A DNA stretch of 63,055 nt, counting the filler, from Kipferlia bialata (taxonomy: Eukaryota), in NCBI GenBank assembly GCA_003568945.1. It is 7 parts of 7 records of this genome, joined end to end, with 100 filler letters (N's around TTAATTAATTAA, not from the genome) between each part and the next. Parts side by side here need not be neighbours in the genome. Positions count along the whole stretch, not along the records: positions 51,267 to 61,401 come from BDIP01001490.1; 6 more parts are not named here. The stretch is one strand, 5' to 3'. How positions within the stretch are numbered: the stretch's first letter is position 1; every line of letters begins with the position of its first letter. The position numbers and the translations under genes are program-made. Under the pieces are notes generated by a model. The model did no database searches and was not told where the DNA came from. It saw nothing but the letters and a program-made list of their open reading frames with translations. Below are positions 20,369 to 59,941 of the stretch, one piece after another.

Positions 20369-20417
<49 letters not shown>

Positions 20418-20809: not shown

Positions 20810-20842
<33 letters not shown>

Positions 20843-27167: not shown

Positions 27168-27198
<31 letters not shown>

Positions 27199-28738
27199 GT
27201 ATATACGTGTATTCACAATATACATTTATGCTCCTGATCGGTGCCACCAATGCAGCTGTGGACAACATACTGCTAAGGTACATATTCATATGTCCATATA
27301 CTGTATGTCCCAATATCTAGGATTGCAGAACAGAGCGTACAGTATGAAATGAGACTTGTATCTTCTACTGTCTATTATGGGTATGCACTGACTGAGTAGG
27401 ATGCTGGATGCCGTCCCGCTTGGCCCCCAGAGAGACAGGTTCACAAAGGGCACAATTAGAGTCGGGTCAAAGCACTGGTATGGATATAAGAAGCATATAT
27501 ATATATGTGTGTGTGTGTGTGTGTATGTGTGTGTGTATAAGTGAACGGAATGACACACTCGTAGTGGAAGTGACACATTGGTACAACACTTGTTTGGCGT
27601 ATGCATTATTCAATGATTGCCATACATTAGCGCCACAAACCTTATGGGCGCTCACTCTTAGTGTGAATCCCCTGCTCCACTCCGTTCTTCTAGAGAATAG
27701 GATACCAGAGCAGACATCCACCGACACTGAGGTGAGTATGTGTGAGTTTGTATAGATGCCCAAGACGTATATATTATCTACCATAGACTGCCCATGAGAC
27801 TTCAGTCTCTTCCGGACGTCCATTATAGGTTGGTTGTTCACAATATGTGATATATTTCAATCATATAGTCTTACTCTAGACTATCCTCCTGCAGGGTATC
27901 CTATCTAGCTGAAGGGCCATGGCAAGTACCAGATATATACATATGTGTATATGAATATATTTATACAAATATCAGACTATCCTCCGTCAGGGTATCCTCT
28001 CCAGGTGGAGGACTATGGCCACCTCCAGAGTGATGGCTGTGACATATATACATACATACATAAACCATGTTAATACTAACTCTAGACAATACTGCGCCAG
28101 GGTATTCTCTCCCGTTGGCGTACCATGGCCACTACTAGAGTGATGGCCGTCACTGCTCACTCATGCCACTCCAACGACGCAGTCAGGTTCTGGGCAAAGA
28201 GGTTTTCTAGCAGGTATTACACTATTAGTATTCAGACTATGGAGAAATACCCTGTGTTTGTATATGATGTTTGTATATGAAAGAGGTGGATGCAGTCAAA
28301 ATCTGGGCAAAGAGGTATTCTAGCAGGTTTGTATTATACCCCTAGCATATACACTACATTGTAGGAGTAACCTATTTATAACTATATATAGTCGGATTCT
28401 GGGCAATTGGGTATTCTAGTGGGTGCGATGTGTAAGATAGACGGAAGAATTACCCCATCTCTCTGAATACAAACTTAGATGCACTTCTCACATATAAGTG
28501 TACTATATATTATTGCACACTCACGTCAGACCTGTGCTTGTCATAATCGATGAGGCTGCCCAGCTCTCTGCCCCCTGGGGTGCACTGCCATTGGCATGGG
28601 CCACATCGGCACTGGTACTAGGTATATATATGTATGTTGTATATGTAGTATGTAATATATATATATTCATATGTATTAGTGTACGATTATTGTATGCACT
28701 TCCCCTGGCATGGGCCACATCGGCACTGGTGCTAGGTA

Positions 28739-28792
<54 letters not shown>

Positions 28793-30466: not shown

Positions 30467-30861
30467 GTATTACGTATACAAAATCATGCTATGATCAGTA
30501 TTATCAATACTGATTTGAACTAACTAGCGCGGCGTGACCCTCCGGGTCACCAGTGTGGCATACACTAATACATATTCCCCTGGACAGTACCTATACATTG
30601 ATTTATAGGAATACCGTCGGCATCTTATCAAGTGTTATGTGTGGTAGAATGCCAATACCGTCCATGGACAGTCTCNNNNNNNNNNNNNNNNNNNNNNNNN
30701 NNNNNNNNNNNNNNNNNNNTTAATTAATTAANNNNNNNNNNNNNNNNNNNNNNNNNNNNNNNNNNNNNNNNNNNNGAGATTTTTTACTTCCCCTTATACC
30801 CCCCCCCCCCCCCCTTCCTCCTCGGCCGTAGAACTCTTTCATGATATTCCCTATTGTGTCA

Positions 30862-36800: not shown

Positions 36801-39800
36801 CGTCCGTGTCAGGTATCTACCCTTGTCGCTCATCTGTCTGCTACGTTGTGGAAGAAGAAGTCCGACACCTTATCACTCAAAGTGTTTCCACATTTCTTTT
36901 CTCTGTATGTCCATTACTTACCCCTAGCTATTCAGCCCCGTGGCCACTCTGCCCCCTCAGAGTCTCTGGTGCAGGTGGGTCTGTTGTTGCTGGTGCTGTT
37001 CTTCTCTGTTATAAGTGTCAACCGTTCTCCATATATACCATTTGGCACACCATATATCATAGTTGTTCACCGCTTATGCCCAGCTCTGTACCTGCTCCCA
37101 GACAGTCTCTCTGACTCAGTCCGAGATGGACAGGGAGAGCCCTGCTGAGCGGCAGAGGCGGGAGGAGAGAGAAGTGGAGAGGGAGAGGGAGAAGCGTCAG
37201 CAGCGGAACAACACCGTAGAGCTGGCTGCATCTCGACGCCCTGTGCCCCTACCCAGTGTACAGGTGTGTACAGTGTATGTAGGTTCAGTCTAAGAGGAGT
37301 TTCTGAAACTGTATCTATTGTTCAGGGCCATATCCACCCTCTTAATCTCAGCTCTCCTGCCACGTGCGTGGAAGTGCCTCAGAGACCTGTGCCACGGATG
37401 TACCAACCGTCAGGGGGAGGACGGATATCCCTGGAAGGTGGGTAGAGTGTATGTATACAGTACGGAGTAAGCGTGTGAGTTTCATGAGTTGGTGATCTAC
37501 TCTACGTGTATATACTGATATTACCTCACCCTTGCACATTTCTGTGTTGGGCCCCCTCTCACCCTGCAGCACAGACGCTCTCGATTCCATCGACTCCATC
37601 CATGTGCGTGCCACACGGAATGGGACTGAGGAGGAGCAGAGTGCGAGTGAGGGTGAGGGTGAGGGTGAGGGAGTGGAGTCACGCCCCCCAGTATGTGAGG
37701 GAGACTCTGACACCTATATGGAGGAGACGGTCCTCGCCCTGCCGTCCCCTTCGTCGCTGGCCTACCTGTCTCTGTCCCTCCCTGTGTGCCCTTCCCTATC
37801 AGGATCTCTGCCTGTACCCCTACCCCTCAGCGTGGCGGTGGAGACAGGTGCGACCCAAGACTTACGGCATACTTACCCCTCCATCACCCTGCCCCTTTCA
37901 CCCTCCAGGTCCCTCCCTTGAGTCTCTGTCTTCAGTTCTACTGGCCACGCCTCTCCCAGCATTGGCCCCAGGTATGCGGTGTGTCTTCACTTTCCTTCCA
38001 GCACTCTGTCAGTAACAAGTGTCAGAAGTAACGCCGTACGTGGTGTCTCGAGCGATTAGACCTGTGTCTCACCTGCAGGGGATGCCCCCCTTGTGTCAGA
38101 CGCAGAGATGGAGAGAGAGCGACTCAGAGTGGAGAGGAGGGAGAGAGATAACCTTCAACGTGGTGGTGTGAGCGGGTGAGTGTTTCTCTCTGTATATTGG
38201 TTCTATTTCCTATTAGGATCCTACTTCCAATGAGTCTCTCATGCTAATGGGCAGGTTTGTCCTGAACGAGTCATTGACTGATATGAGTTCCCTCCTACCC
38301 GTGGGCAGGGAGAGAGAGAGAGAGAGAGACATAGTCATGCCTGTGAATGCTCTTGGGGCAGGGCACTCAGTTCGACAGGAGAGAGAGGACCGTGGGGAGT
38401 ACGGTTTGTCTCGTCCTTCCATGCCGATGTCCGCCCAGAACAGCCCAGGGGTGTCATTTAGACAGGTACGTGTTTACTGCATGAGTGGCATTTTAGTGGA
38501 GATAGAATTCACCTGTGTCTTTGTGATATCACTTTGTATATTCATATTGTCTTGAGAGTGAGTGCCCGTCACTGACCCAGCCGATGTCGCTGGGGGACTC
38601 GATGCTGGACGAGGGTAGGGACAGAGAGAGGGACACAACCTCATTCTACGGATCTAGAGAGAGGGAGAGAGAGAGAGACAGGCAGTCTACGGACAGCATG
38701 AGGGTACGGTGATATATATATTGTTGATGGACACGGCAGTCTCTGCATCTAGCATGTGAGGTGTTATCCTCTACTATTCACCCCAGGTTAGTGTTTGCAT
38801 CCCATTGAGTGCCAGCTATGACAGGAGTGTTACATTCAGGGGCACCCGTACGGTACCAGAGGAAGTCGTATCCGTAAGGTGTGATATCTCTTTTGGTGTC
38901 TCTTCCCCCCTTTCCTCACCCAGGGGTGCTGTCTCAGGCACATCCTCCCTCGGCAGACACAGACACAGTATAGAGGGGTCAGCCGACATAGAGAAGGTGG
39001 GGGTCAGGAACTGGGCATACGTACATATAACGAGTGATCTCTACCCAATTATGATACGTGTTCAACCATTGGTACAACTGTAAGTGGTCATTCAGTCTCG
39101 AGCCATTGCTCTCGAGTTGCATAGTCTCTATATATATATGTGTACTATCTGCAGGACTCTCACCTACAGGTCCAGCGTCTGGAGTCCGAGGTGGAGGCCC
39201 TCTGTGCATTCACTACCGAGCAGGTGGGTGTGTCGTCTGTCACGCTATAGGCTGGTGTCAAGGTGTCAGTGGAGTAGGGTGTTGTGTCAAGTGTGACCAT
39301 TATCGTGTACCTCTGTGTTTCCCGATATTTTCAATCATTATATGCTCGTCACTTCATAATAGTTGTATAGTCAACAGGTCTGACTGCAGGTGCAACGTCA
39401 GAGACAGTCCCCCAGGGAGAGGCAGGTAAGATGATTCACTACATCAGTGTATTTATCAATAATCTACATGTCTGCACTTTCAGCCTTGCCACTATTACAG
39501 ATTCCTCCCAGGTTTCCTTCGGCCATACTGTTCTGATGTTGATGTCTGTTCTACTCTTCTTATGTGCCAGGAAGAGGATACCAGGGGTTCTGTAGTGTAT
39601 CTGCAGGAAGACCCGCTGGTGTCTGTGGTCAAGGTGAGTACTTGTGGGTGTTTGTACAAGGAGATAGGCGTAGCCAGTATCATCAGACTCTGATACAATG
39701 GACGGGACTGTTAGCAAGCTGGTAGTTGCAGGGACGCCGTGGTTGGTATTATAGAGATATAATCCCCTCACCTCCAGGTTACCATCAAGTACCAGGCCTC

Positions 39801-40751
39801 TGCCTGTCCTGAGGCACACCCAGGCACAGATCATCACCCAGGACTCAAGGTGGGTATGAGGATACAGCCAGCCATGGTGTAGATAGACTATGCCACCCTT
39901 GCTGATGCCTTGTCTCATTGCCAGGCTACGCTGTATGGCTATCCCCTCTCCCACATGCACATTGTGACCGCCTCAGACGTTCTAGCCACTGAGGGAACCA
40001 AGCATGGGCTCTATCTGCCAGGTGGGCTTTGCCTTTGTATCACTTCCAGTCATTGCTATCATTGTCGTTGCTTGCGTCGGTGTCCGTGGCAATCGATGCG
40101 TATTCTACTATAGTCCACTCTACTCTCCCTCTGACTCCCAGCCAGAGTCTCAGTTGGTACTGGGTCATATGCGGATGGAGGTACATACGAAATGTAATAA
40201 GCGTTAATATGTCTGAGTATGACTTGGTACTCGTAACTTGACGGTTTCATGTTCACTATATGTCTATATTCACTATCAATATGGAGAGTTGAATATTAAT
40301 TACAATTTGTGGTCTTTCATGTTTCCGTGTCATACCAACCATCTCTCACTGTAGGTATAGACCGTGACGCTGACATGACATCCCTGTACCTGAGTGCCAT
40401 TCTGTCCAGACAGAGGAAGCAGAGAGAGAGAGAGGCAGAGGGAGAGGCGACCGACAGAGACCTCCACTCTACCAGACTCAGCGGGAGGGGGGGGAGGGCC
40501 AAGTACCCTTCTACACCAGGTAGTAGTGTCGTACACTGTGTGCTAGATGTAGTTGTATGTGTGGTTGTGTATATGTCTCCTCGCACCTGCCTCTGACCCC
40601 AGGTGGGGAGTCCGGTGTGTCTACCCTCCCCCCCAGGTCATCACGGCACAAGGCCCAGCCCCATACACATACACCCCATACACATACACCCCACACCAAC
40701 AGGAGGGGGATGCCGGTGTCTCTGCCCGTGTCATCACCCTCGCCAGCACAG
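30862..40751 (+). CDS. large multi-exon hypothetical protein (possibly more than one gene); boundaries approximate
   Basis: Alternating GC-rich exon-like blocks and GT-AG introns on + across the whole contig (e.g. QYLCHLKIFLESYAHSLYFCETLDL; DMTSLYLSAILSRQRKQRE). No family recognised. Confidence 0.45.
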
Positions 40752-40876
40752 GTATGTATATATGAGTATATGTATGCATGTATGCGTATGAGTATGTGGA
40801 AGCAATGGGACGTGGTATGCAAGGGACAATCATGTACCATTGAATCCAGCTCTGCTGTATCTCTTTAGCTTCACCG

Positions 40877-40927
<51 letters not shown>

Positions 40928-41027
40928 NNNNNNNNNNNNNNNNNNNNNNNNNNNNNNNNNNNNNNNNNNNNTTAATTAATTAANNNNNNNNNNNNNNNNN
41001 NNNNNNNNNNNNNNNNNNNNNNNNNNN

Positions 41028-41078
<51 letters not shown>

Positions 41079-41099
41079 ACAGGGCACGGGGGAGGGCAT

Positions 41100-41500
41100 C
41101 GATTCTCCCTGTCAAAGTGCTTGATACAGACAATGGCAAGGTCAGATACTATATATATTAACAACAATATATATATATATACTATATAAGTATATACTAT
41201 ATATATATATACATATATACCTTGTACATCTCCCTGTCAAAGTGCTTGATACAGACAATGGCAAGGTCAGATAGTATATATACTACACATACTACATATA
41301 TATATATACATATATATATATACCTTGTACTGCTCCCTGTCAAAGTGCTTGATACAGACAATGGCAAGGTCAGATACCATATATACTACATATGTACTAC
41401 ACATACTATATATATATATATATACTATATGTATATATATATACCTTGTACATCTCCCTGTCAAAGTGCTTGATACACACAATGGCAAGGTCGGTGTGGG
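41100..41500 (-). repeat. exon-echo array: three donor-side copies of the pflA exon end (GACCTTGCCATTGT.TGTATCAAGCACTTTGACAGGGAG..GTACAAG|GT)
   Basis: Copies at ~41323-41375, 41219-41272 and 41104-41148, downstream of the true exon on the minus strand. Confidence 0.9.
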
Positions 41501-43003
41501 GCAGGATGACACGCTCGGCACGCTTCGGTCCTACTGTCAGACACAATATAATATACATATACATACATACACAAGGGGTCCTGGCATAATAGTGCATCAC
41601 ATTATGTAGATTATACTATAGTAACTGTATCTGCAATACTACATATATACATATCATACATGCATATATCACGTACCGATACCAGAGGAGCAGAGGCATG
41701 TGGTGAGGCCAAGGTCGTGGGTGCGCTAGGGTGAGAGAGAGGTAAAGCGACACTGACACAATACTACCCATGTATATATACATTCATATACATACCTGGA
41801 ATATGTTTGCCACAAACACTGACTGCACAGATGGGTCACAAGATACGTATACAATAATGATATCTACCTATATATACTAGAGATTTTTGTGTATATATAC
41901 TGTCTATATACATATGCTATGTACTGGTATAAGTGTACCTGGAATATGTTTGCCACAAACTCTGGCTGCACAGATGGGTCACCACCGGAGATGGAGACAC
42001 CGCCGCCCCTGATATAAGGATATCAAAATGGTAATTGAATATATATATAGAGAGCATACCTAGACTTTCGCCAGGCCTTCTTACTGAATGAATGGCAATA
42101 ATAATAAAGATATATACATTGTATATGTACACACATACCTGGGCTTGAGCCAGGCCTTCTTGCGGGAGATCTTGGACATCAGGGAGTCGACTGGGGTGAG
42201 GACGGTCACAATATAGAGTGTATACATACATATACATGCACAAACACACACATATATATAGTTGGGAGACCTTGGACATCAGGGAGTCGACTGGGGGTGA
42301 GTGCCAATACAATGAACTTAGAATATGACACGTTGGACTTCGAGATCTCTCTGTCTCTCTGTCTCCCTCTCTATATATATACATCATCTATATATATACA
42401 TCATCTATTCATATATCCCAACCTATTATGGATGACCCCACATTGCTCTGCCATCTCTCTCTCTATATATATAAGAATACATTATATATACACTTTATAA
42501 CTTAACAAATATGTGTATATGTATATACCTGTCATGGATGGCCCCACATTGCACTTCCAGGTGTCTGGGTTGGAGCAGAACATGCACTTGAGGTTGCATC
42601 CCTTATGGTTAGATACTATATGAATTATAAATAACAATAGTGTAACATTATAGTGTATATATACACTTCTCCTAGAATATATATGTGTCTGGGTTGGAGC
42701 AGAACATGCACTTGAGGTTGCAGCCCTAGGAATTAGATAATACTATTGACACATACATAGAGTGTATATACATTGATGGGTCAGTTAGTATATGTATATA
42801 GAGTATATACATATATATATTATATTATACCTGCAAGAAGATCTGACAGTTTGGTCTGGTGTCTTCCAGGTCTATCTATATTCAAGTATTTAATGTATAC
42901 ATATAGTATATACCTGCAGGAATATGAGGTATCTCATGCCGGGTCCGTCCAGCATGGTCATGGACTCCTCAGAGTGCACAAAGCCCCTGGCGCCAACCTT
43001 AAC
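41445..43003 (-). CDS. pflA: pyruvate formate-lyase activating enzyme (radical SAM), multi-exon, partial
   Basis: Exons give GFVHSEESMTMLDGPGMRYLIFLQ|GCNLKCMFCSNPDTW (CxxxCxxC)...GGVSISGGDP..QPEFV...GLTTCLCSSG...LPHTDLAIVCIKHFD. DGPG.R...F.QGC is the PflA signature. Confidence 0.9.
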
Positions 43004-43232
43004 CTAGATATTAGACATATCATATTTGATATATAGTATGGGGAGAGAAAGAGAGAGATGAAATAGGTGACAAAGCCTCTGGCCAGTCTTGACCTAGGCA
43101 TAAGAAGGGGAGAGAGAGAGATAAAGAGAGAGATACTGAGTTGGATCTGCTCAAAGGAAATAGAGGTAAGTCTGTAGGGAACTGGGGAAGGCGGGGGGGG
43201 GGGGGGGGGGAGAGGGGGGGGGGGGGGGGGGT

Positions 43233-43264
<32 letters not shown>

Positions 43265-43383
43265 CTGGGGGAGAGGAAAGGTCCTTCCGAAGGAGCACGG
43301 AACGGTGCATATATTCACCGAACTTTACGCAGGAATATGCTCCATGTATAATAACACAATGCGTGTAGGACATGCATTCATAC

Positions 43384-43677
43384 CTTCATTTCCTCCCCAT
43401 CCACGCCCTCCTGACACAGACAGCTGAACATAGCAAGGGAGGGCGACGCTAGTGCCTCCTCTGCACTGTGAATCTTATGCAGCGTACCCCCGGGCTTCTC
43501 TAGGAAGGGGGAGGTACCTGTCGTATTCCAGTATGCCGCAACCACATGTGCCGCAAACTCCCCCAACACATCCATCATACACTGCGTGTAGTCAGTTCCT
43601 GACTTGACTTGAGAGCGGGGTAGGGGAGAAGTGCGGCTAAGTGTTTCAGCCGGGGGCTCATATGGCTGAGTGCTCAT
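43384..43677 (-). CDS. probable first exon of an unidentified gene (MSTQPYEPP...GEEMK|GT), separated from the pflA exons by a poly-G tract
   Basis: ATG-initiated open frame ending at a GTATGA donor. No similarity to PflA recognised. Confidence 0.4.
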
Positions 43678-44022
43678 CCCCAAGATTCTGAGTAGAAAGG
43701 TGGCCTCTGTATATATACATATGGCCCATCGAGTCAAACCTTTAGGTCGAATAGTATCGTTGGGTGTCAAAATTGGTCAACAACACCCATACCACTCTCT
43801 ACAACACAGTCTCAGTTGACCGAACCAGTGAGGCTTGTGGTGTGCATGTCGTCAGAGACAGACACCTCATATATATACACAAGAGGTCAACAAGATACAT
43901 AGCTGGGTTATATATTTGTTGATTGCGAGCCAGTGAATGGATGAGTCTGTATATTATGCATTTCGTATGCCTCTATTGGGTTGGACGCGTTCAATCTCAT
44001 TCAGTAGTCCATTCATTAGAGT

Positions 44023-45093
44023 CTAACTCAGTAAATAACTGTCGAAGCCTTCGACGAAGGTTGGCTCAATATCGACTAGGAAGAAGTGTGACAGCCCGAA
44101 CCTTATGAGAGTGTACTCAGCACTGAGCCGACATGCTCCCCCCCAATTAGATACACAACCTGGGTCAACATCGCCCCACGTCTGCCACTCGCCAGATATA
44201 GTGTCAAGAGCTCTGACAGCTTTTAGTTGTTCCCGTGCTATAGGAATCAGGGTAACCAGATAGTAGTCTAGCGCGAATGCAATACAGGTGCTTTCAGACG
44301 GTGCTTCCATCTCCCAATAAGCATGCAGTAGGGATTGATAAGGGGTGTGTGTGTTGGAGGCTGATGCTCTGTGGAGAGCCAGGTGAACGAGACCGACCCC
44401 GTCTTCTGGTGGTGACAAGGAAGAGCTAGAGCTGGCGTCACCCTGTATATGTGGCACACCGGCCACGGTTATGTGATAGTAAGGCTCATAGAACGCCACC
44501 GGAACTGCCTGAGGAAGGCCTTGGAGCCGGTACCACACCCCCAGGTCTGGGTCATATGCCCACACAGATGAGAGGTCTTTCCCTGAGCTGTCGCACCCTC
44601 CAGCTACCACCAGCTGGCCCTCTACCTCGAATGCCGTGTGCATCCACCTGCCCTCTGGCCACTCCTGAGCATCAGCAGCAGGCACCACACGCCACTCCCT
44701 GGTGGCTATGTCAAAGATGCACAGCTCTGCCATTTGCGAGTCTAGCTGACCTTCCGGCTCCCTCTCCCTATCTCTGCTGGGTACAACACCCTTCCCACCA
44801 AACATGAAGACCTCTCCCCCAATCTTTGTCACTGTTGGGTATGTCTTTCGTACCTGACTCTCCAAAACGTTGTAGCGAAGTATTCGGTCACTGGTATCTA
44901 CAGTGATTATCATGGAAGGTGACTCGGGGTAACCAAGGTAAGACCGTCCCCTGGGTGCTATGTACAGCACTTCATTGTGGCCAATGCATACCATGGCGCC
45001 ACTGAAGCCCACAGGTCGACGTCCATATGGGCTGGGACCATCCATAGGGTCCGACGACAGAGGCTGACAGCGAAGGTGAGGTGGGGAATTCAT
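44023..45093 (-). CDS. intronless Kelch-repeat (beta-propeller) protein
   Basis: Uninterrupted ORF with Kelch motifs VTKIGGEVFMFGG, IFDIATREW, WPEGRWMHTAFEVEGQLVVAGG and VWAYDPDLGVW. Start codon uncertain. Confidence 0.8.
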   Translation of the reverse strand: MNSPPHLRCQPLSSDPMDGPSPYGRRPVGFSGAMVCIGHNEVLYIAPRGRSYLGYPESPSMIITVDTSDRILRYNVLESQVRKTYPTVTKIGGEVFMFGGKGVVPSRDREREPEGQLDSQMAELCIFDIATREWRVVPAADAQEWPEGRWMHTAFEVEGQLVVAGGCDSSGKDLSSVWAYDPDLGVWYRLQGLPQAVPVAFYEPYYHITVAGVPHIQGDASSSSSLSPPEDGVGLVHLALHRASASNTHTPYQSLLHAYWEMEAPSESTCIAFALDYYLVTLIPIAREQLKAVRALDTISGEWQTWGDVDPGCVSNWGGACRLSAEYTLIRFGLSHFFLVDIEPTFVEGFDSYLLS

Positions 45094-45487
45094 TGGTAGA
45101 GAGAAGAGTAACATCAGGGCAAAGGCGTGATAGAGAGGAAAGACACCATCTCTCTGTAACACAGTTACTAAGTTAGTAATACCAGAAGAGTAGTCTGTTC
45201 GTGGCGAGGTCTTCTCTTGTCAGAGGAACCATATCTCGGCATTGGAAGGAAGATCCAATGACCCTTTGGCAAGGACCCACAAAGGTTTGAAGAAGGACAA
45301 TGAATACTTCTATAACCCGCTTGATGGAGGTAACCGATCCAACTATAATGTCGAACAATGAAAATGAATAGGCTGACTTTACAGTGAAGTTCATACACGG
45401 TCTATTGTGCTTCTGTGGCACTAACACAAACTATTCACCTATCGCTACACGTACTCTCCCTGGGATATATCCACACAACCCAACACC

Positions 45488-48400
45488 TCACTCTGTCTTT
45501 GGCGTCTCCTCTGCCTTCCCCTCCGTGACTGCCGCCACTGCCTCCTCCAGCACCCTCTCTATGGCGGCCTCCTCAGGGGTGGGGGGACTCAGGGTGGGGG
45601 TGACGGGGCTGGCACCAGCTGCTACAGTGGCGGTGGCCTCCTTAGAGGGTGTGGTCACCCTCCCAGACTGCACCGCACTGGGAACGGCCTTGCCAGTCGG
45701 GGAGTTGGGGGCAGACAGACGGGATGCAATCATCTCGTTCAGCTCCTCAAGACCAAGCCTGACAGTGAGACACACTATGTAAAGAGTAATAATATACCAT
45801 ATATTCAATGTACGTACCTAGCAGCAATGGCGGATGGCCTAGGTGACTTGAGCCCGTCCATCCTCTGGGTAGAGGCAGAGGGGGCCAGACCACCACCCCC
45901 GCTGTTCCTGCTCCTCTGCTGTGCCCTGGAGTGCAGTCTGCTCTGCCTCAGGGACTCGCGGCACTCCTTGTACTTGACTAGAAGCTCCTCGTAGTCCTAA
46001 AGTCAGAGGAGGATGACAGTATAGTAATATATATAAACATATATATGTGTATATGTATACATACCTTGGTGATCCTGTTTGCCTGTGCCTCCAGCCTGTC
46101 GTATCTCTCTCTCTCGATGGCCTTGGCCTGGGGGGTCAGAGGGATATATATCCAATACATAATTACTATTAGATTAATACTTAGCGATTGTTGTCATAGA
46201 AATGGCTATACTATCCAGCCCCTCCCACCTTGTTGATGCTGATCTTTGCCTTGTACTGCAGTCTGTTCCTCAGCTCTGCATTGGCGTTGGGGTCAGAGGC
46301 CTTGGCAGCAGCGTGGTTCTCGACAACACGCACCCTGGAGTGAGTACTAGCAAAAATCCACTGACTCAAACACCCACAAACAAAGAGAGAGAGAGAGAGA
46401 GAAGATAGCACGAACGTACCTATCCTTGAGCTGTCTGATCTCAGTTGTATATAGGTAGAGTATATACAATATAGTATTCACAGCTCTGTCTGCCTGTACC
46501 TATCCTTGAGCTGTCTGATCTCGGCTGTGAGGGATGCGTTCCTCTTCCCAAGTGACACAATGTCCCTCTCCCTCTGCCCCAGGGTGTCCTTGACATTGCC
46601 CAGCTCAGCCCTGGCAGTCTTCAGGGCAGACGCCATCCTGGGGTTAAGTAGGATAAGACACCATATACATGTGTGTATATATATGAGTAGTAATAACATG
46701 TGTATATATATATTAGTACTCGGCTATAACCCACTGGCAGAAACCACTTTGGGGGTCAGCCAGAAATAGTTCGCACAACACAACGACTCCCACCTGTCTG
46801 TGTGTGCCTGCCTGGCCTCTGTCTGCTTGGTCAGACGCATGGCCTGGGCCTGGGGGTGAGGGGATGTAAACATATAGACATGTAATATATAGAGAACACA
46901 TCATTATCGCCATACACCGACAGTAAAAATAGTGGTCATATATTATAGGGCCTAATGGGAAAGAGACTCATAGTGGAGAGAAGTTATGAGGATCATTCGG
47001 TACCTTAGCGTGTGCCGAGTCCTCCCTGGCCTTCTTGCAGGCTGCCTTGAGGTCTGAGTTGTCAGACACCAGCTTGTCCCCCCTTCTCTCCAGGTCGGCC
47101 AGTCTCTGCCGGCACTCCCTCAGGGAGACGTGCATCGACTGGGGTCAGGGTATATACACAGTGAGAATACGAGTGTAATCCATTCTCATCACTATACCTG
47201 AGCCTTTGCCCTGCCCTCTGCCAGTGCTGCCTTGAGAGTGGATGTCTCAGAGGCATTGAGGGTCAGCCTCTTCTCGGCGTCCTGGGAGTGGGACGGTGAA
47301 CATGACACACACGATGTCTTCACATTACTACAACTGAATGTGTCTTGGCATGTATATCATCTGCGTGTGTGTAATACTACATATTGGCTGTATCCTACCT
47401 GTAGCTGTGTCTGTGCGTGTGTCACCAATATATAGGTATCTATCAGTGTGGTATCTATCTATCTATACACAAATATACACCATTCTGTACCTGCAGCTGT
47501 GTCTGTGCGTGTGCCATCTGGATACGGGTGTTGTCCTCTCTCCTCTTGGCCTCCACAAGCTGAGGGTGAGATATCCATAAATGCAAATATATATATATGT
47601 GTATTTATACATACACACATGCATCCCCCCACCTGCTGCCTGAGTGCTGCTGTCTCCCCCACCAGCTGGTCCTTGACCCTCTCCTTCTGCTGCCTGGTGC
47701 CAGATGCACTCTGGATCCTGGGGTGAGGGGTGATATAATACACTCATATACAAACACATATATATATATATATATATACATGAGGCACTCTGGATCCTGG
47801 GGTGAGGGGTATGGATGTATATGCACTTCATGTCAATACTATGTGGTACATCTGATATGTCAATACCTAGCCTCTGCCTTCCTCTATATCAACAAGTAGG
47901 TATATGTATATATATGCATGTAATACATGTATATATACATTGTCTCACATACCTAGCCTCTGCCTTCCTCCTCTCGCTGGCTGTGCCTGCCAGGTCAGAT
48001 GTGGCATGGCGCAGGTTGGCCTGCAGACTCCTGTTCTGCTGCCTGGGGGGTTAGATACACATACACATACAGAGACTATATGTATTATTTATATCTATAA
48101 TTGTTAAATAACTCACCTGAGCCCTGTGATCTCCCTGGCATGCTTCTCCTTGAGAGAGGCCACGGCCTCGGCCAGGGCCTTCATCTCTACCTCAGCCTCC
48201 TGGGGGTTGGGGTATATATATATATATATATATACATATATATAATCACATGTACATAGTACTATATATTGAATACACCCCATACCTGCTGCCCCCTCTC
48301 TGACCCTGCCTTGAGTCTGTTGCACTCGGCCACAGCAGCATTCATCTGGGGGTTAAGTAGGGATAGGGACACATTCATGGGATAATGTACATATACTAAT

Positions 48401-51076
48401 ACATAGCAGCATTCATCATGGGATTAATATTTGGAATACACTACCATACATCAATAACAAGTATATGAATTGCTGTGTCCCTCATACCTGCTGCCTCAGC
48501 TTGACCTCTGTGGTCTCGGCCACCTCTAGCTTGCGTCTGGGGTCAGAATGGCATCAATCAGCATTGGAGTACATTATACATGTATACATACATACACACA
48601 CCCACTAAATCACATATATATATACACTACACACATACCTGAGTGCCATGTTGGAGAGCTCCTCACTCTGTGTGGCCTCCTTGGCAGTCAGGGTGTGTCT
48701 GTACCTGGGTGAGGAGGGTCAATATATACCAACACACATGAAACTCATATATATACCAACATATACCTCACAATCAGTACCCCCGCCGCACTGAACCTGT
48801 CCTTGATGTATCTTTCTCTCTCTCTAGGTATACCTATAGGCTTACTAATGAAATAACATATCTATCTACATACCTCACAATCAAGACTCCCGCCGCACTG
48901 AACCTGTCCTTGATATCTGTGTTGGGGTTGGCTATGTAGGCCTCGAGGTCCTCAGAGCCCATCCCACGGTACTTGGTGTCACCTGGGGGGTGAGGGGATA
49001 TATATATGTGTAGTCATTACATCACACTGTGTGTGTCGAAGGAGGGGGGGGGGGGTACATCCCTCCAATATATATATATATATATCCATACGCCCTGTAC
49101 CTGGCACCCTCTCTGGCAGTGCCCTCCTGTCCAGCATGGCCTTCAGGGCATTCTGCTCCTGACAGTTGGGGTATCTTAGGCTGACATACAAATGGAGTAT
49201 ATTCACAAGAATACATATTATGAATTTGTACCTCCTCTCTCTTCTTGAGCACTGCCTTCTCCTCGTCTCTGATGCGCTGTGCCTCAGCCTCTGCCTTCCT
49301 CTCCTTGGCACGGAGCCGGGCCTTCTTCTCCTCGGACTGATGGTAAGACAGTATATGCAAATATACACATAGGACATGTAATACTGATGTTTGCATGTGA
49401 AGGGAGTACAGTACCTTGCGCTCTGCCTCTCTCTCTGCCTCTCTCTTCTTGCCCTGCTCTATCAGGTTGCGAAGAGTGGCCTTGAGACCCTCAACCTCCT
49501 CAGACGACCTGGGGGGAAAGGAGCATCTATATATACATATAATGGAAACAAACCAACACTGTAGAAGGTGTATCAGGGGGCCGATGCCGGTGTACCTAGC
49601 AATCTCGCCTGCCCTCTTCTCCAGCCACCTGTCGTCCTTCTCCTTCTGGGCCTTGGCCCTGGGGGTCAGAGATAGACAGTGAAATATAGGGGAATGGATG
49701 TATGTATATTGACACAGAAATCATTACTCCTTCTGGGCCTTGGCCCTGGGGGGTGAGGGGGGCATAGTGAAATATGTATAGGGATGAGGGGGTCAATGAC
49801 CACATATACTAATGTACATACATGCATCTCCAGTGATATCCATCCATATATATATCTGGGTCTTATCTTATACCTAGCCTCGTCCTTCTCCTTCTGCTGT
49901 GCCATCCACTCCTGCTCCTTGGCCTCCCACTCCAGCTGGCAGTTCTGGAGGATAAGAATGTATGCATATGCCCATTGATACAATGTACTCTATATCCATA
50001 CACATACACTCCAGCTGGCAGTTCTGGGGTAAGGTTATCCACACATACATGTACATACATATATATGATATAGTAGAATGCTACATATTTCTACTCCAGC
50101 AGGTAGTTCTAGAGGGTGAGGCAGTATACATGTATATACATCTTGACACCATGTACTATATACACACCTTCTGAGCCTGGACTGCTGCCTCAGTCTCTAG
50201 AAGGGCAGTGTTGCGCTGGGAGATGACAACCTCTGGCAGTGAGAGGGAGTAACACGATATATAGGACAAACTCAACCAGGGTATGTAGGGCCTTTGCCAC
50301 TCGACTCCATATTGGTGTACAATATGAATACACATAAACCACCTATTAACTAAATTATAACATATGTATACAACTATACACCCACCCAGTGACTGCAGGG
50401 CCTCTGCCAGGTCAGCGTCCTTGATGCCCATCCTGGGGGTGGGGGTTGTATACATACTGAAGAGTAACTAAGGAAGTACACATGTAGGGTCTGACGACAA
50501 CACCATTTTGACGTTATTGTTAGAGAGAGTAGCACACACATATGTACATGATAATACAACAACATACTCACTTGAGGGATGAGTCCTGGGCCTCTCTGGT
50601 GGCATTCTTGGTGGCGCTCTCTCTCTCTGCCTCCCACGCTGCTATCCTCTCCTGCTCTGCCTTCTCTCTCTCTGCCTCTCTGGTCTCATGGGCCGCAGCC
50701 TCTCTCTCCCTCTCGGCCTGCCACTCCGCCCTCTCTCTCTCTCTCTCTGCCTCCACAGCAGCCATCTCCTCCTGTCTCTGCTTCTGTCTGGCAGCCTCTG
50801 CCTCAGCCTCCACCCTCTCTCTCTCCTCAGCGGCCACTCTCTCTCTCTCAGCCTCCTCGGCGTCCCTCTCCCTCTCCCTCTCCTCGCGGGCCTCTCTCTC
50901 CCTCTCGGCCTGGGCCTCTCTCTCTGCCTCTGCCTCCTCCCTCACCCTCTCAGTCTCTGCACGGGCCTCTGCCAGACGTGTGGATGCGGCCTCTCTCTCT
51001 GTCTCCAGGGTGGCGATCAGCTCCTCCTCCCTGCTCTCACTCTGCGTCTTGATGGTCTCCAGCACCAGCTGCAGGG
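45488..51076 (-). CDS. long coiled-coil (E/R/A/K-rich) protein, multi-exon, 5' partial
   Basis: Many minus-strand GT-AG exons encode heptad-like helical sequence (e.g. RMASALKTARAELGNVKDTLGQRERDIVSLGKRNASLTAEIRQLK). Terminal exon ends ...TPKTE* at 45488. Confidence 0.75.
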
Positions 51077-51468: not shown

Positions 51469-53182
51469 CCCCTGGTGTCCCGTTTCTTGGTACCCCTGTC
51501 CTCACTGGAACCAGATCCATAGGAGGGGAGGGCGAGACAGAGGGGGAGCGGGGGCGTGACAGGGTGTGTCAGTACGAGTACACCTGGGTGGATGCACAGT
51601 ATGTCACAGAGGTAACGTGGTGTATATACCCCTATACCATGTTGTTACGTCTATATGAGTATATGAATATGGTTTCTAAGTCATAGACACCTGGGTGGAT
51701 GCACAGTATGTCACAGAGGTAAAGTGATAGTATACGATATACTCTCTTATGTTACATGTCCCTCTACCATTATCAGTTACCATGCTAACTAATGCCTCTC
51801 TCCTACTCCAGCGAGTGTCTATTCTTCGTCATCCTATCTCTCTCTCTCTCTCTTCCTCTAATATCGGAGAGTGTCTATCCTCCGTCACACCCTATTAAAT
51901 ATATCGTGCGTATGTATACCAGTCTCTCACTGCAGAGAGTGTATATCCTCCGTCACACCCTCTCTGACTCTGACCTGCTGTGTGACGCATGTGGCCTCAT
52001 ACCCTGTGATAGTGATAGTGACAGTGATAGTGATAGTCTGGTGTTGGATCCAAAGCTATTAGTAGGAGAGGGAGAGGGAAGTGATACCGAAGCCAGTTCC
52101 CCAGGCTCCCCCGTTTCCCCCAGTCCCCTCCCTTCTCTCTCTCCCTCTCTGAGCCCTGCTGTACCTTCAGTGCTACCCTCCCCTGCACCCCTACAGCCAT
52201 CTCTGACTGATGTGGTGCCAATCATATGCAGCACAACTAGACTAGGTATTCGAGATTGTATATATGTATATGTATGTATATATACTCTTATGTGTACAGT
52301 GTATGACCATCTGTGACTGATGTGGTGCCAGTGATATGCAGCACAACTAGACTAGGTAATTGTAATTACGTATATGTATATATATATTCTCTATGTATAT
52401 AGTATATATGTTCCCAGCCATCTGTGACTGATGTGGTGCCAATCATATGCAGTACCATACGGTTAGGTATTCTATATTGTATATATGTATATGTATGTAT
52501 ATATACTCTCTCTGTACAGTGTATGACAATCTGTGACTGATGTGGTGCCAGTCATATGCAGCACTACACGGCTAGGTATGATTGGATATGTGCTTTCTAT
52601 GTACACAGTGTATATGTATTGTATGCGCTGTGTTTCTATTTTATCTTACCCCCCAGAATCCATCATCCTGCCCCTTGCCCTCACCTCCATATAATACAAA
52701 CATTAATATATATTTCATACATATATATATATGAGTGTGTGTTCTTCTATCTGACTCCCAGACTCTCTGATTCTGTCCCTTGCCCTCACCTCCCTCGGTG
52801 CGACACCCGTCTCTCTCTCTCCCTGCCTGCCCCAGCAGTTCTTTCCACACAGTGACAGTAAGGGTGTAGAGAGGAAGAGAGAGACTGAGAGGGAGAGAGA
52901 TGCAGAGTCTGAGAGTGAGGGTGGCCATGGGAGGAGACTATCTATCAGCTCAGCGAGGAAGGAGAGAGAGCGGGAGAGAGAGAAGGGTATTGCACCCCCT
53001 GATATGGTGAGAGTGAGGGGGGTGGACATGGGGCACAGACAGGCTATCCGCAGTGTTAGGTATTCATATTGTATATATGTATGTATGTATATACTTATAT
53101 ATATGGTCAGAGTGAGGGGGGTTGACCTGGGGCACAGACAGGCTATCCGGAGTGTGAGGTAGTAGCATGGTAGTATATATTC

Positions 53183-53214
<32 letters not shown>

Positions 53215-54234
53215 GGTGAGAGTGAGGGGGGTTGACCTGGGGCACAGACAGGCTATCCGGAGTGTTAGGTATGTCTTGAGTTCAGTACCTACATATCAAT
53301 AGTCATCATGGTATTGGGTAGAACTGGGTCTTAGACCTGCTATCCGTATTGGAAGTATTGGCTTATAATAGTACATGCGTATATATATATATATGAATTC
53401 ACATTTCTAGTGAGAACAGTGTGCAGTGTGCAGTAGTATAGATGAGGTAGGATTATGATAAGTCATCTGCATTACAAGTAAGTATGTCTTTACCCCCAGG
53501 CACCAGATTGATGCCTGTGGGTCTGATGTCACCTGTGTGGTCACAGACTGGACACACCTGCAGGTATAGCTAGTCTATATGTCATTGTATATATATATAA
53601 TGTAATATTCTAATATGTATTGTGATGATGTATATATATATATATATTATGTTTGTGGTCACAGACTGGGCACACCTGCAGGTATATATCTATTAGTATA
53701 TATATTGATAGTGTGGATATTATGGCGCTGTACGTTTCTACTATACTCGCAGTGTGTGGTCACAGACTGGGCACACCTGCAGGTGTGTATAACTGGATGT
53801 ACTCATATGTATATGTGTTTTCATACACTGATATTTGTATATTGGATGATACTACTATACTATCAATGCTTCATAGACTGGGTACACCTGCATGTATGGA
53901 TTGGAGCCCACATATATAAGTATACGTGAACATAATCGGTCTATAGGTGTATATATCTAACCCCCAGATCTGCCTGGGTGTGGTTGCATCTGGCAGAAGC
54001 ACAGTCAGGGACATCATACTGCTGGGTATGTACCTCTTAGAGTTCATGAATACATAATGTATGCTATAAGTATGTATAGTATATTCGTGTCTCTATATAT
54101 ATAGTGTGAATCTGGCAGAAGCACGGTCAGGGACATCATACTGCTGGGTGGGTGTATACATATCAATCCACGTATACATCGATCTGTTGCATCTCTCTGT
54201 AACCCCAGACTCTGATGCCCACTCCTGGTCATCA

Positions 54235-54265
<31 letters not shown>

Positions 54266-57200
54266 CCCTGATTCTCCAGACTCTGATGCCCACTCCTGGC
54301 CATATCCATAGTATGTGTCTCTTCATACTGATATTCATATGTACATGTATATATGTATACTTCCCTCTCACAGTAACCCCAGACTCCGATGCCCACTCCT
54401 GGCCATCCACCGTATGTCTCCTCGTATTAACATACATACACACATATTCACATGAATATATGCATGGCTCTCTAACTCCAGACTCTGATGCCCACTCCTG
54501 GCCATCCATTGTGTCACACCTCAGCGGCAGACAGGAAGTGAGGTATACACATATATACATATATTAGTATATTAATACAATTCATATATATATACATATA
54601 TATAGTTTCTCAGACAGGAAGTGAGGTAGGGGGATGTATATATACATACATATATGTATTACCGTTGTATACCTCTAGTTCTGAGATAACATCCAGGTGT
54701 CTCTCCTCCCTGTGTAACTCAGACGTGTGCCCCTCTATTTCACACACTTCACCTAGTGTCCACATCCCTACATCCAACAAGGGTAGAGAGAGAGGTAGAG
54801 GGAGAGACTCCCCTGCCCTTGGCCTTGTCACACCCAGTACATGTTCCACACCTGAGATGCACACGGTGTCACATGCTGATATCATACAGGTGTGTGTTAT
54901 AGAGTACAACTCAACACATTTTCATGTATTATTCACACATAGTTCACAAACTTGCTTCAACTATCATAATGTACTTTACTTCTAACTGTTTACTTTAGGC
55001 CTCCAAGGCGCTGGATGTCAGGCTCAACCTCAAGTACGGGGGTGACAGCGTTAGAGAGGGAGAGGGAGAGAGAGAGAGAGAGGTAGCAAGCGAGGGCACT
55101 GGTGCCATTCCCATGCCCCTGTCCCCTCTACTCAGGAAGAAAGGGGACCACAGGGAGGCACAGGCTGCTAGGTATAATCTCCTTATAATAGTATGCCAGA
55201 CCTAACATATTGTGCCAAGTTACTCTACATTCAAGTCCCAACACTGCCGACACCATCCTCCTCTCTCTCTTTCTCTCTCTCTCTCTCTTACCCAGAACTA
55301 AATCCCTTCTGCACTCCAGCCCCTACACTGCCGACACCCTCCTGCTGTCCATGTCCCTGAGTCCATCCCCGTCCAGTATGACATGGCCCAGTGTACTGTA
55401 TGCTGCCTCCCAAAGAACAACAAGGTCTGTTTATTATAGCATATAGATATGTAGTCTGGCATATATATATATATACCCGTCCAGTATGACATGGCCCAGT
55501 GTACTGTATGCTGCATCACAGAGGACTACTTGGTGAAATAAAATATATATAATATACTCTTATGTATGTATACCATATCCACATTGGTGACTCTTTCTTA
55601 ATACCAGGGTAGCACTGCCGGACCCCTGCCATTCAGATGCCCTAGGCTCTCTCCTGCTCTCTGTCCCTGCATCTGCACCATACCCCCTTTACCCCCGTAA
55701 CACCACTATAGAGAGAGATAGAGAAGGGGAGAGAGAGAGAGAGGCGGAGGCAACATCCCCACGTGAGAGGGAGAGAGAGAGGGAACCGTGTATGTCTTCA
55801 GTTTCTGCGCCACTGAGCACTATCAGTGAGAGTATGGAGGGAGACAGAGAGGGAGACAGAGAGAGAACTGTCGCTGTACACTCCACTCCCTCCATCAGAG
55901 GTGGGGGTGAGAGAGAGGGCAGGAGTGTGTTCCAACCCACACCACTCAAGGAGAGAAGGGGCTCCTTTGGGGGTAGGAGACTGAGTGTGGGGTGGTTGGA
56001 TGGAGGGAGGGAGAGGGGGAGGGAGAGAGGGAGAGACTCGGATGCCGACAGAGACAGAGCATACCTACACGTTGCAAGGTAACTACTCATTGATCGACAT
56101 GTGTTTTTCTATATTCACTATATGCTAATTCGAATACATGTATATATGTATATTCACTTCAGGTACCTTCGTGTGTCTATTCATGATAACCATTTGTATA
56201 CATATTACAATATGTTCATTATAATACTCCAATACTTGTATTCTTATTTACTCCAGGTCCCCCCGTGCCTCTATCCTTGACAGACAGAGCCAGGCCTATG
56301 GGGCATCTGGGGTGTCACTGTCTGTGACATCACCACCACCCAGGGCGGAGGGGGCTGTGGAGGTATAGTATGTATGGTGTATATATATGCAGTATGTATA
56401 TATATATATATATGTAGTGGTGTATGTATCTGGGGTATCCCTGTCTGTGACATCCCCACCACCCAGGGCAGAGTGGGCAATGGAGGTATTAATAGTATTC
56501 TAGTGTATATAGTGTATATATTACATTAGTTACTGTCTGTGACATCCCCACCACCCAGGGCAGAGGGCGCAGTGGAGGTATAGTGTATACATAGTGTACT
56601 CTTAGTGTTGGAGTATATTCGTACTATATTCTAACCTCTAGGTCCTTACCTCCCCCGCTGTGTGTATGTCTATCCACTCCCCACTTGCACCCCTGGCACT
56701 GTGCCATGCAGCCAGGGCATCAGTGGTAGTTGTAGGTGAGTATGTATATATATATATATNNNNNNNNNNNNNNNNNNNNNNNNNNNNNNNNNNNNNNNNN
56801 NNNNNNNNNNNNNNNTATACAGTGGCTGTTGAGTGTACCCCTTGGCTCTCTGTCATGCAGCCAGGGCATCGGTTGTTATAGTAGGTATATGTATATGTAT
56901 TCACATAACTGGGGGCATTTATGCATATACACTTGTATGTACCATACAGTACCATAGTCTAACTTCCAGGCGAGGCCGCGCTGCTTGGCATCCACAGACT
57001 CAAGACTCAGACCATACAGTCAGGTAGATATATACATATGTGTGATGTATGTGCGACTACGACACACAACTTGTGAATGGATATGTAGTTGTGCAGGTGT
57101 ATGCATGTATCTCCACCTTTCCCATCAATTTCTATACACACTTGACTAATGGGTATCAATGTGTGGTTGTATGCATCTAATACAGGCCTTCTCCGTGGCT

Positions 57201-59941
57201 ACTCTGCCTCCCCTGACTCTTCTGTCATGCGTATACATATATATATATATATATACATATACATTGCTACGCATATAGATTCGTGTATATGTAACTTATG
57301 CTAGGTCTCCTCCGAGGGTACTCTGCCTCCCCTGACTCCTCCCCCATGGGTGCCACCCCCAGTGCATGCTTCAAGCCATTGTATGCAGTACTCAGGCGAT
57401 GCAGGTATACACTCAAGACTCTGTATATTTTGTGTATACTATAATGTATACACTATGTTTGTGTTACTATGAGTGCCACACCCAGTGCATGCTTCAAGCC
57501 ACTCTACGCGGTGTTGAGACGATGTAGGTACATATGGTACTATATATACAAAGTGTATGTACCCTATTAATATATATACATCAATATTGATGCCACACCC
57601 AGTGCATGCTTCAAGCCACTCTACGCGGTGTTGAGACGCTGCAGGTATACACTGTTAATGTTTCAGTTGTATTCATACATCACCTATCCCTGGTGACTCT
57701 TGTGTGCTTACACCCCAGATACCGAGGTGTGGCAGTGGACAAGGCCAGTCACATACACACATGAGTATACACTATTTTCATATGGAGACATGTCTTGTGG
57801 CATCTCTACTTAACTATGTATTGACACCCCAGATACCGAGGTGCAGCAGTGGACAAGGCCAGGCAGTACATGCTGAAGGGCTCGGATACATCTAGTGACA
57901 AGGGACCTGCATCTCTGGCAGACTGTGTAAGGTGTGTTACATACTATATATCATATAGTTCAGTAGTGGGATACTATGTATATGCGTGATTGAATACATG
58001 CTGAAGGGCTCGGATGGGAGTGGAGAGAAGGGTCCCGCTTCTCTGGCAGACTGTGTGAGGTATGTTATAGTGAAGTAACGTACAATAGTAAACATCCATT
58101 CACCTAACCCCCCAGGTGTCCCTATGTGATTATGGTGATATACTTGTACCCATCCATACCCCTAACCCCCCAGATGTCTCTTGGTTGAGCACTCTGCAGA
58201 CACAATGGGACTGGGGGCTATTTGCACTAGGTATTACCATCCTATGGTATTAATCATGTGTATATGTATGTATATATAGTCAACCATTTATAATTCAGAA
58301 TGTCAATGTGTGTGAATATATCGATATACTGTGCAGACACAATGGGACTCCATATGAACCAGGTACTTTCCCCTAGTAGAGTTTGGATTTATAGTACTTA
58401 TAAGGTGATGCCAGTCACAAGACCCTTTACAGCTCTTGGGGTGTGCGTATATGTGTATGTACCACTATAATCGAGAGTGCATGATGTAAACCCTTGGAAG
58501 TATAATGATGTATACACTTACCCCCAGGGATGCCAAGTACAAGACACCCCTTCATAGGGCACTCCGGTTTGCAGCTGGGATGGTGGCGAGGTGGGTGTTA
58601 GATATGACATATATATACATTAACATATATGTATATAGTGTATGGGTGTGGTGTCTGAGTCATACTATCTGCATTGCCTTCTCTCGGTGTAGCTAGGTAT
58701 GTGCATATAGTACGTGCTCTCTATCTCTCTGCTCTCTCTCTGCTCTCTCTTAGTCGGCTGACCCCCAGTGATGTAGTATCCCTCCTACCCATCCTTGGAC
58801 AGATAAAGGGAGAGGCACGTGGAGAGAGAGAGAGAGAGAGGCGGACTACCCCAAGAGTGCAGGGCAAGACCAGTGTTGCCTCACCCCTCCCTCCCCCCAC
58901 CCTATCCTGCCTGTTCAGCGGGTTCAGACCTCAGCACTGGAACTCGATTGGCAACACCTTTGTGACAGGGACCCCTGCCTCTCTCTCCCTGCTACCGAGA
59001 GAGGGAGCCCCACATGGGGTGTACTCTCTCTCCCTCTCGTCCTCCGCTTCTGCCGGACACTGTAGCCCTGTTGTCGCTAATGCTGAGCCTTCAACAGCCA
59101 GAAGTCAAGAGAAGTCAACGGATGGAGGTGACATCGTTGACAAGCAACGACTGCGATACTTGGGCAGAGGTGGTGTTGTGTATGTTCCTGATAAGAAGGG
59201 GGCAGTGTTCTCTTTACCCGTTGACGGTAAGAGACAGGGTGTGATACCTGTGTCACTCCCTAGTCTGGCTGGGCTGATACACTCTCTCTCCCTCTCTCCC
59301 ATTGAGGAGGAGAGAGAGAAGGGGGAGGAGGAGGAGGAGAGGGTTGAGGTGCCTCAATACCCTGTTCTCGATGCATGGTTTGAGAGACCACCACCATCCA
59401 ACAAGGAAGGGAGAGAGAGAGAAGAGGAGGAGGAAGGAGAGGAGGATGTTCCTGTACCCTTCCTTGACCCCCTGACCCCTATGGCCAAGAGGACTAGTAA
59501 TAGGAGCAGGAGGGAGAGGGGGAGAGAGAGAGAGACTGCTGTTGCAGAGGAAAGTGTGTTGGGAGAGATACCCACTCTACATATTGTACTTGCCAGGGAC
59601 TCTGAGACACAGGGTGGAGAGGGGGAGAGAGAGGTCCAGGAGTACATATCCAGACTGAGGGATACCCTGCTCAAGGGGTTCAAGAGGTATTAACATATGT
59701 ATATATAGATATATGAATATTCTAGATTCACTTAGTCCTTACCCTTACACTCCTTAACCATAGGCACCGCATCCCCAAGGCCCTCCTGCCCTCTGGCATA
59801 GTGAATATATACAATAGATACTATATACATATATATATATTAGTATATATTCCCTTAATACTCCTTATCTTCAGGTATCGTATCCCGAAGGCCCTCCTGC
59901 CCTCTGGCATTGTGGTGGACAGGGACATCAGGGGGTATTGA
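51469..59941 (+). CDS. large multi-exon protein, possibly a highly divergent AMP-binding/acyl-CoA-synthetase-like protein with low-complexity inserts
   Basis: Exon structure is clear and ends ...KGFKRYRIPKALLPSGIVVDRDIRGY* (59939-59941). Weak ANL-like motifs: VPIICSTTRLDSLILSLALTSLGATPVSLSP, VTCVVTD and YRIPK. No clear P-loop (YTSGTTG) was found, so the product call is tentative. Confidence 0.4.
52197..52580 (+). repeat. exon-echo array: three donor-side copies of CCATCT.TGACTGATGTGGTGCCA.TCATATGCAG.AC.A..CG/AGA.TAG|GT
   Basis: True exon ends at 52245; copies end at ~52355, 52466 and 52575. Confidence 0.88.

Follow-up and report, generated by a model that had tools for sequence, protein, structure and literature searches.

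Why should introns carry, shortly behind their donor sites, altered copies of the exon ends that precede them, and why should the alterations so largely spare the encoded protein? The question was raised by two consecutive exons of Kipferlia bialata. The window, i.e. the whole stretch of 63,055 nucleotides analysed here, consists of seven pieces, each up to about 10 kb long, with N-linkers between them; the copies at issue, which we term echoes, lie in the piece 51267-61401. One exon of their host gene retrieved a single protein, K. bialata KIPB_006011, for which no match to a Pfam family was found; an exon from another window piece retrieved K. bialata DNA2. Nine gene models were curated and one of them was dropped, a minus-strand gene at 60.3-61.2 kb with misplaced exon ends (3 of 111 rows). 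Compared with the annotated proteins, 1143 of 1148 residues are identical for KIPB_006011 and 1021 of 1067 for DNA2, where the differences are confined to echo-free exons. The labels kinase, RPB1 domain 5, NifU_N, and DNA2 were taken from a Pfam search; DYRK, SAC-like, PFL-activating, and proteasome beta were assigned presumptively on the basis of motifs.

Table 1. Features around exons 14 and 15 of the host gene, and further echoes of the window. Positions count along the whole window.
Position	Strand	Feature	Basis
51469..59941	+	Host gene KIPB_006011, K. bialata hypothetical protein, 19 exons, 5'-partial; 30 echoes in or beside it	Open frame, protein match, RNA joins and bin depths
57186..57232	+	Exon-start echo of exon 14 (AG plus copy); 6 silent, 2 amino-acid changes	Alignment
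57305..57404	+	Working exon 14; echoed part is the end, 57346-57404	RNA bin depth implies 99 nt vs 100 modelled
57405..57468	+	Donor GT in use, with stub 1 (64 nt, rich in AT, stop codon in frame); unalignable to flank of echo 1	z 0.9
57469..57529	+	Echo 1, exon 14 end with GT; 8 silent codon differences in 57475-57527	Alignment; DNA contig across left junction
57530..57585	+	Stub 2, separating echo 1 from echo 2	Sequence
57586..57646	+	Echo 2 with GT; 7/8 silent variants of echo 1; mosaic	Alignment
57717..57751	+	Echo of the exon 15 start (AG, then 33 nt, 57719-57751); 2 amino-acid changes	Alignment
57833..57931	+	Working exon 15; echoed part is the end, 57867-57931	RNA bin depth implies 100 nt vs 99 modelled
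57932..57994	+	Donor GT in use, with a stub of 63 nt	z -0.9
57995..58061	+	Exon 15 end, echoed together with its GT; 3 changes alter amino acids, 5 are silent	Alignment
117..51076	both	78 further echoes in seven other genes (kinase, RPB1-like, DNA2, IscU, radical-SAM-like, coiled-coil, one unknown)	Echo scan

At exon 14, the original prediction of an exon end and two variant echoes stood up to re-checking of the alignment. The exon end 57352-57404 and echo 1 (57475-57527) both encode ATPSACFKPLYAVLRRC and differ in eight codons, all synonymous, which amounts to 10 nt over 17 codons and includes the double-hit codons TTG/CTC and CTC/TTG. Echo 2 (57592-57644) has seven of these eight variants in common with echo 1, from which it differs by 2 nt; it is a mosaic, whose first 9 intron bases match the working copy and whose silent variants match echo 1. 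All three copies terminate in AG|GT, and reading through from exon 14 into the first stub, as we call the intron segment in front of an echo, leads to a TAA near 57442. If echo 1 had been born identical, its silent-only pattern would arise by chance at most twice in 200,000: in a simulation that allowed only silent changes in the exon and any change in the echo, 10 nt of difference left the amino acids unaltered in 0-2 of 200,000 runs. At exon 15, the predicted copy of 57867-57931 at 57995-58059 exists, with five synonymous and three amino-acid changes (T>G, S>G, D>E). The attribute "in-frame" holds in the sense that the echo reads openly and means nothing beyond this, the offset being 128 nt. 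The tct/agt serine switch claimed for this echo is present, but lies within a run of four altered codons and could represent a shifted alignment; a cleaner switch (TCT/AGC) is found in the RPB1-like echo 3275-3322. Thus both exon ends are copied, GT included, inside the next intron, and the same stretch also carries echoes of exon starts, upstream of exons 14 and 15.

Which copies are in use was deduced from sequencing run X2, which is presumably RNA, as its contigs are spliced at GT-AG, and which stems from the same sample as the DNA run X1. RNA record 9, which corresponds to the host gene, is spliced at 51611, 51936-52245, 52762-53059, and 54697, and a gap of 183 nt in it equals exons 4-6 of the gene model. 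In addition, 14 RNA depth bins agree with the modelled exon bases to within 2 nt; for example, the depth of bin 56883-57194, which covers part of the exon 14-start echo, is that of exon 13 alone. Bins without cover (53139-53450, 54075-54386, 57507-57818) were not taken alone as evidence; the joins of record 9 and the covered lengths were used. Joins and depths together indicate that in the host gene the first donor and the last acceptor, i.e. the outermost splice sites, are in use. The RNA contigs fit the working copies only, with echoes removed within single joins, and the conclusion that the echoes are intronic now is supported. A new spliced intron arising from a duplicated AG|GT was not seen in record 9; two-step splicing is invisible in contigs. 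Recursive splicing via the AG|GT of echoes appears improbable: by eye, exon-start echoes are not enriched for GT starts.

Across the window, 108 echoes in 78 clusters were found in eight genes, where 63 of 124 introns carry them; 63 are exon-end copies downstream of a donor and 45 are exon-start copies upstream of an acceptor. These counts are lower bounds because the echo finder is ungapped and misses echoes with indels (e.g. 58328-58349). In a control, the comparison of exon ends with foreign introns gave no false match in 690 tests. Echoes are 13-69 nt long and spaced by a median of 107 nt (range 56-169), with stubs of a median of 68 nt, rarely below 40 nt (4/108). Once the echo units are taken out, introns are back at normal length (85 nt, compared with 90 nt in echo-free introns). 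Not one of the 78 nearest echoes comprises a whole exon or has both ends of one. Echo density is strongly locus-dependent: in three further genes, as predicted without curation, echoes occur in none of 46, in one (doubtful) of 10, and in none of 5 introns, and these introns are more GC-rich. A long gene at 30912-40751, presumably SAC-phosphatase-like by its motifs, has 46 predicted introns, no echo, an intron GC content of 0.46 versus 0.33-0.39, and few TA repeats.

Several observations accompany the scan. Gene ends including the stop codon are also echoed downstream (59896-59941 at 60030-60075; 60295-60312 at 60358-60375), so that splice sites as such are not a requirement of the process. The region 41104-41492 consists of four near-identical exon-end copies with similar TA-rich spacers and is nearer to an ordinary minisatellite; this array suggests that duplication of echoes from echoes occurs, too. 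Two echo-like segments with an acceptor-like AG and a GT, 60502-60534 (minus strand) and 52418-52466 (plus strand), lie outside the RNA contig coverage and are candidates for skipped pseudo-exons. In the echo of an IscU exon end at 20107-20142, a conserved Cys codon is altered to a stop; the next IscU exon was not located in this piece. At 2790-2823, a poly-C run fuses a kinase gene that is truncated at its 3' end with the RPB1-like gene, of which the C-terminal half follows, and this junction is probably a misjoin; several pieces start or finish in poly-C, and a further run is located at 43190-43265. The tail of the RPB1-like protein (8145-9922) is rich in Gly, Ser, and Ala and lacks canonical heptad repeats. 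Acceptors throughout the window have a branch-like CTNAC within about 12 nt of the AG, and the identity of acceptor-side echoes reaches that far.

The silent bias of exon 14 recurs in the window as a whole. For the 78 nearest echoes, 183 synonymous and 120 non-synonymous changes were counted, a silent fraction of 0.60 (bootstrap 0.53-0.67), whereas 0.42-0.46 is expected if echoes were born identical (p 4e-11 to 2e-7). A strong transition and GC>AT mutation bias lifts this expectation to at most 0.50, and omitting the five most silent echoes leaves a fraction of 0.56 (p 7e-4). In 35 of the 43 echoes having at least three differences, pN is below half of pS; the excess is present in both echo types and outside the host gene. 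It is not significant in the four conserved genes alone (25 echoes; silent fraction 0.49, p 0.09-0.26; third positions p 0.02-0.04), and the third-position share between echoes, 0.51, is not above 0.46 (p 0.15). Silent changes are symmetric in direction (65 GC>AT versus 65 AT>GC), whereas amino-acid changes lean to AT (64 versus 39). Multi-hit codons are silent in 10 of 57 cases versus 1.5 expected. CpG hypermutation was rejected as the source of the excess, as CpG accounts for just 17 of 166 changes.

The same comparison separates two phases of divergence. With dS at 0.35 and dN at 0.062, the 78 nearest echoes changed at amino-acid sites as much as at splice dinucleotides (13 of 214 altered, 0.061); therefore, the neutral phase of the echoes spans about 0.06 changes per site, and they are decaying neutrally now. 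Since dS exceeds this neutral decay, a silent divergence of about 0.22 (dS-2dN; 0.14-0.32) was gained under coding constraint. Silent counts are overdispersed, with 26 zeros versus 12 in a Poisson and 26 in a geometric model; non-synonymous counts are overdispersed as well, so a spread of ages accounts for part of this. Along the echoes and towards the splice site, no clear gradient of differences was seen. These numbers reject a birth as identical copies without later allelic exchange, and echo and exon very probably diverged while both were coding, as alleles.

How did a diverged exon end come to lie in an intron? According to the original prediction, a break in the exon could have been repaired one-sidedly from a diverged homolog. 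The diverged coding state of both copies, the geometry straddling the splice site, and the non-matching stubs agree with this claim. An age order of stacked echoes, which we expected in addition, is not supported: the outermost echoes are not more decayed (9 versus 7 cases, 4 ties). The junctions have one end in exon register, the other being an abrupt non-homologous join. On the intron side, identity stops at the splice signal, with medians of 3 nt at donors and 7 nt at acceptors (39 and 29 nt on the exon side), and only 7 of 75 stubs resemble the flank of their echo at p<0.05. This speaks against exact tandem copies and is consistent with a template whose intron was different. No correlation was seen between stub and exon similarity (rho -0.15, p 0.2). 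The 10 nt at the junctions are not TA-richer than the remaining stub (0.38 versus 0.42).

We propose that echoes are likely to be displaced alleles, left behind when exon breaks were repaired off a strongly diverged homologous allele. A break would fall 15-70 nt inside an exon, and one end would invade the other allele via exon homology and copy about 110 nt past the splice site, into an unrelated intron. The extended end would then fail to anneal back, and Pol-theta-type end joining would connect it to the other side of the break. The imported edge, as the newcomer, would take over the working role, and its predecessor would be stranded in the intron together with the GT or AG that it carries. 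The protein stays intact only if an event crosses the splice site or stop codon and ends before the next splice signal, so that selection keeps just this geometry. The published repair inventory would fit such a route. Metamonads lack c-NHEJ and fornicates lack Rad51A according to the passages covered of PMC8516963, whose Supplementary Data 2 lists Dmc1, Rad52, PolQ, Spo11, Hap2, Msh2, Mlh1, XPF, Rad10, and BRCA2 for K. bialata and does not list BRCA1; Dmc1 has been linked to stabilising mismatched joints (PMC6719624, passages covered).

Several points speak against one-sided repair. XPF, Rad10, and Msh2 are among the proteins listed as present. Donor-side stubs are richer in AT and TATA than is usual where introns begin in these genes (GC 0.25 versus 0.32, p 2e-4), which is unexpected of the intron of a random allele. 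Echoes with near-identical exon parts and unalignable stubs demand an intron divergence far above the silent one, and the rarity of stubs below 40 nt is left unexplained by the model. Further counterpoints are that no donor was seen, that the silent fraction of the conserved genes is not significant, that echoes compared with each other have no raised third-position share, that differences form no clear gradient along echoes, and that no age order is seen in stacks. Support for the allelic signal is good, and the birth route is less settled: we give an even chance to one-sided repair in which a diverged allele serves as template and end joining closes the break.

The strongest competitor, which we regard as a minority possibility to be taken seriously, holds that echoes were born as identical local duplications, by slippage or end joining and perhaps with TA-rich filler, and that conversion or crossing-over with a diverged allele later replaced the working copy. 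It needs a very diverse recombining population, but no diverged template at birth. The TA-rich, low-complexity donor-side stubs and the lack of age order are in line with it, as is the finding that all echoes of a stack share 27 silent and 8 amino-acid variants versus the working copy. So are the mosaic patterns at 52197-52575 and in the exon 14 echoes, which count equally for one-sided repair, a weak overall likeness of stubs and flanks (KS p 0.002), and units that share intron flanks (identity of at least 20 nt in 7 of 78). At 52194/52415, 43 nt of intron are in common and, as in the array 41104-41492, a plain local duplication is resembled; however, this pair also shows that TA-rich flanks can remain aligned. 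Yet among the echoes with a 97-100% identical exon part only 1 of 10 has an alignable stub; therefore, these near-identical echoes are not recent exact tandem copies. Moreover, identity stops at the splice signal and not at random points, and it can be argued that echo-exon conversion alone would not bring pN/pS below 0.5. One-sided repair is indistinguishable from local duplication plus ordinary allelic recombination; both need diverged, recombining alleles.

Alternatively, the donor could be a paralog that has since been lost, or a likewise lost homeolog if the genome is of old hybrid or polyploid origin; this would explain silent-biased differences without present-day polymorphism. We consider this improbable. 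Protein searches gave a single match each for KIPB_006011 and DNA2, the next relative of DNA2 being 33% identical, in a search of representative sequences, which does not show relatives above 50% identity. Echoes affect every one of the eight genes, and X1 is without variant letters and even in depth, though contigs drop variants. A single fixed divergence (Poisson) fits the silent counts worse than a spread of divergences (lnL -147.6 versus -140.3), which makes a polymorphic population more plausible than a single hybrid event, with the spread of ages as a contributing factor. Of the two sources named in the original prediction, cryptic sex and hybridity, the latter thus fits less well in the form of one fixed divergence. 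Other blanks of the donor search are weak evidence: a look for other strains yielded two listed sequencing runs, both from one sample; two metagenome scans contained no relatives; and a short-protein search gave no match. The published K. bialata draft genome, whose isolate is possibly not the one used here, has one host coverage peak (PMC5874029, passages covered).

Slightly less probable still is that echoes remain under selection at the protein level, as minor alternative exons or conversion donors. Their splice signals would allow it, as GT is retained in 54 of 63 exon-end and AG in 43 of 45 exon-start echoes, splice scores frequently equal those of working sites, and minor isoforms are invisible in contigs. 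However, splice dinucleotides decay at the rate of amino-acid sites, both exon ends never occur together in an echo, stop codons occur in 3 of 108 echoes (the IscU stop included), and RNA contig joins skip the echoes.

DNA run X1 bears on the integrity of the assembly. One contig equals 57271-57503 with 0 differences at a single-copy depth of 403 (410-463 for the other seven listed contigs) and crosses stub 1 into echo 1, 35 nt past the first junction; none of the X1 contigs listed spans the junction at 57995. Together with the contigs over 53236-54225 and 55485-56470, three echo clusters are covered without differences at depths of 403-429, like their neighbours. Since X1 possibly represents the reads behind the window itself and contigs drop variants, these contigs exclude tandem misassembly but not heterozygosity. 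Two haplotypes or strains written in tandem are thus a very improbable source of the echoes, although the assembly is fragmented, stems from short reads, and contains N gaps and a probable misjoin at poly-C, and although X1 perhaps consists of the same reads: separate contigs cross the clusters and RNA record 9 is spliced exactly around echoes.

Known systems resemble the displaced-allele reading in part. One-sided invasion at double-strand breaks, which Belmaaza and Chartrand are said to have described in 1994 from engineered substrates, likewise yields one homologous and one non-homologous junction; in K. bialata the donor is only deduced. Mutually exclusive duplicated exons differ, as echoes never contain a whole exon with both splice sites. 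In C. elegans helq-1 and brc-1 mutants, tandem duplications arise from aborted SDSA joined by polymerase theta (PMC8654963, passages covered). There, too, a direct tandem copy results from one extended end failing to anneal, as proposed for K. bialata; the size range starts near 100 bp, comparable with the direct, adjacent echoes and their median spacing, and the listing of K. bialata with PolQ and without BRCA1 (PMC8516963) is in line with that setting. In contrast, the C. elegans copies are identical, of a median of about 1 kb, and observed in mutants, whereas echo units of about 107 nt differ like coding alleles and are fixed in about half of the introns of eight genes; identity at birth, as from a sister template, is rejected for echoes unless allelic exchange followed. 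Intron 7 of human F7 contains a 37-bp minisatellite whose first unit lies over the exon-intron border (PMC1557585, passages covered). As in the host gene, the copied donor sites are silent and the most upstream one is used; in contrast to its near-identical whole units, echo units have unrelated intron parts, mirror copies at acceptors are equally frequent, and the differences favour silent sites. The gain of introns through tandem duplication of AG|GT (PMC3265369) likewise duplicates over splice-like sequence, but in K. bialata existing introns lengthen and no new position arises. The K. bialata spliceosome is reduced, and copies of junctions are unmentioned in the passages covered of PMC6679479. 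The main text of the species' genome paper does not contain "duplicat", and literature searches, with subscription journals outside their coverage, gave no description of the echo pattern in Kipferlia. Echoes are real and dense, and they make up an apparently undescribed variant of a known duplication type.

If echoes are displaced alleles, one genome yields both the silent divergence of alleles (about 0.14-0.32) and evidence of their exchange. To our knowledge, such a divergence is near the highest values for eukaryotes, and we know of no description of sex and population diversity for most free-living metamonads; hidden sex and extreme diversity would be recorded in a single genome. We deem it conceivable, if somewhat short of probable, that K. 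bialata, without c-NHEJ and Rad51, routinely repairs exon breaks one-sidedly from alleles that are silently diverged by about 20%, thereby renewing its splice junctions, extending introns in steps of about 110 nt, and archiving displaced alleles next to the gene. Introns would grow and splice junctions turn over by such a route, and nature would provide an example of repair without Ku and Rad51. The strong splice signals kept in echoes offer natural tests of how a reduced spliceosome chooses the outermost site; echoes also mislead gene finders, as the predictor used here called many of them as exons. If the window is typical, one genome would contain tens of thousands of fossil alleles, and diversity and sex might be read without population sampling.
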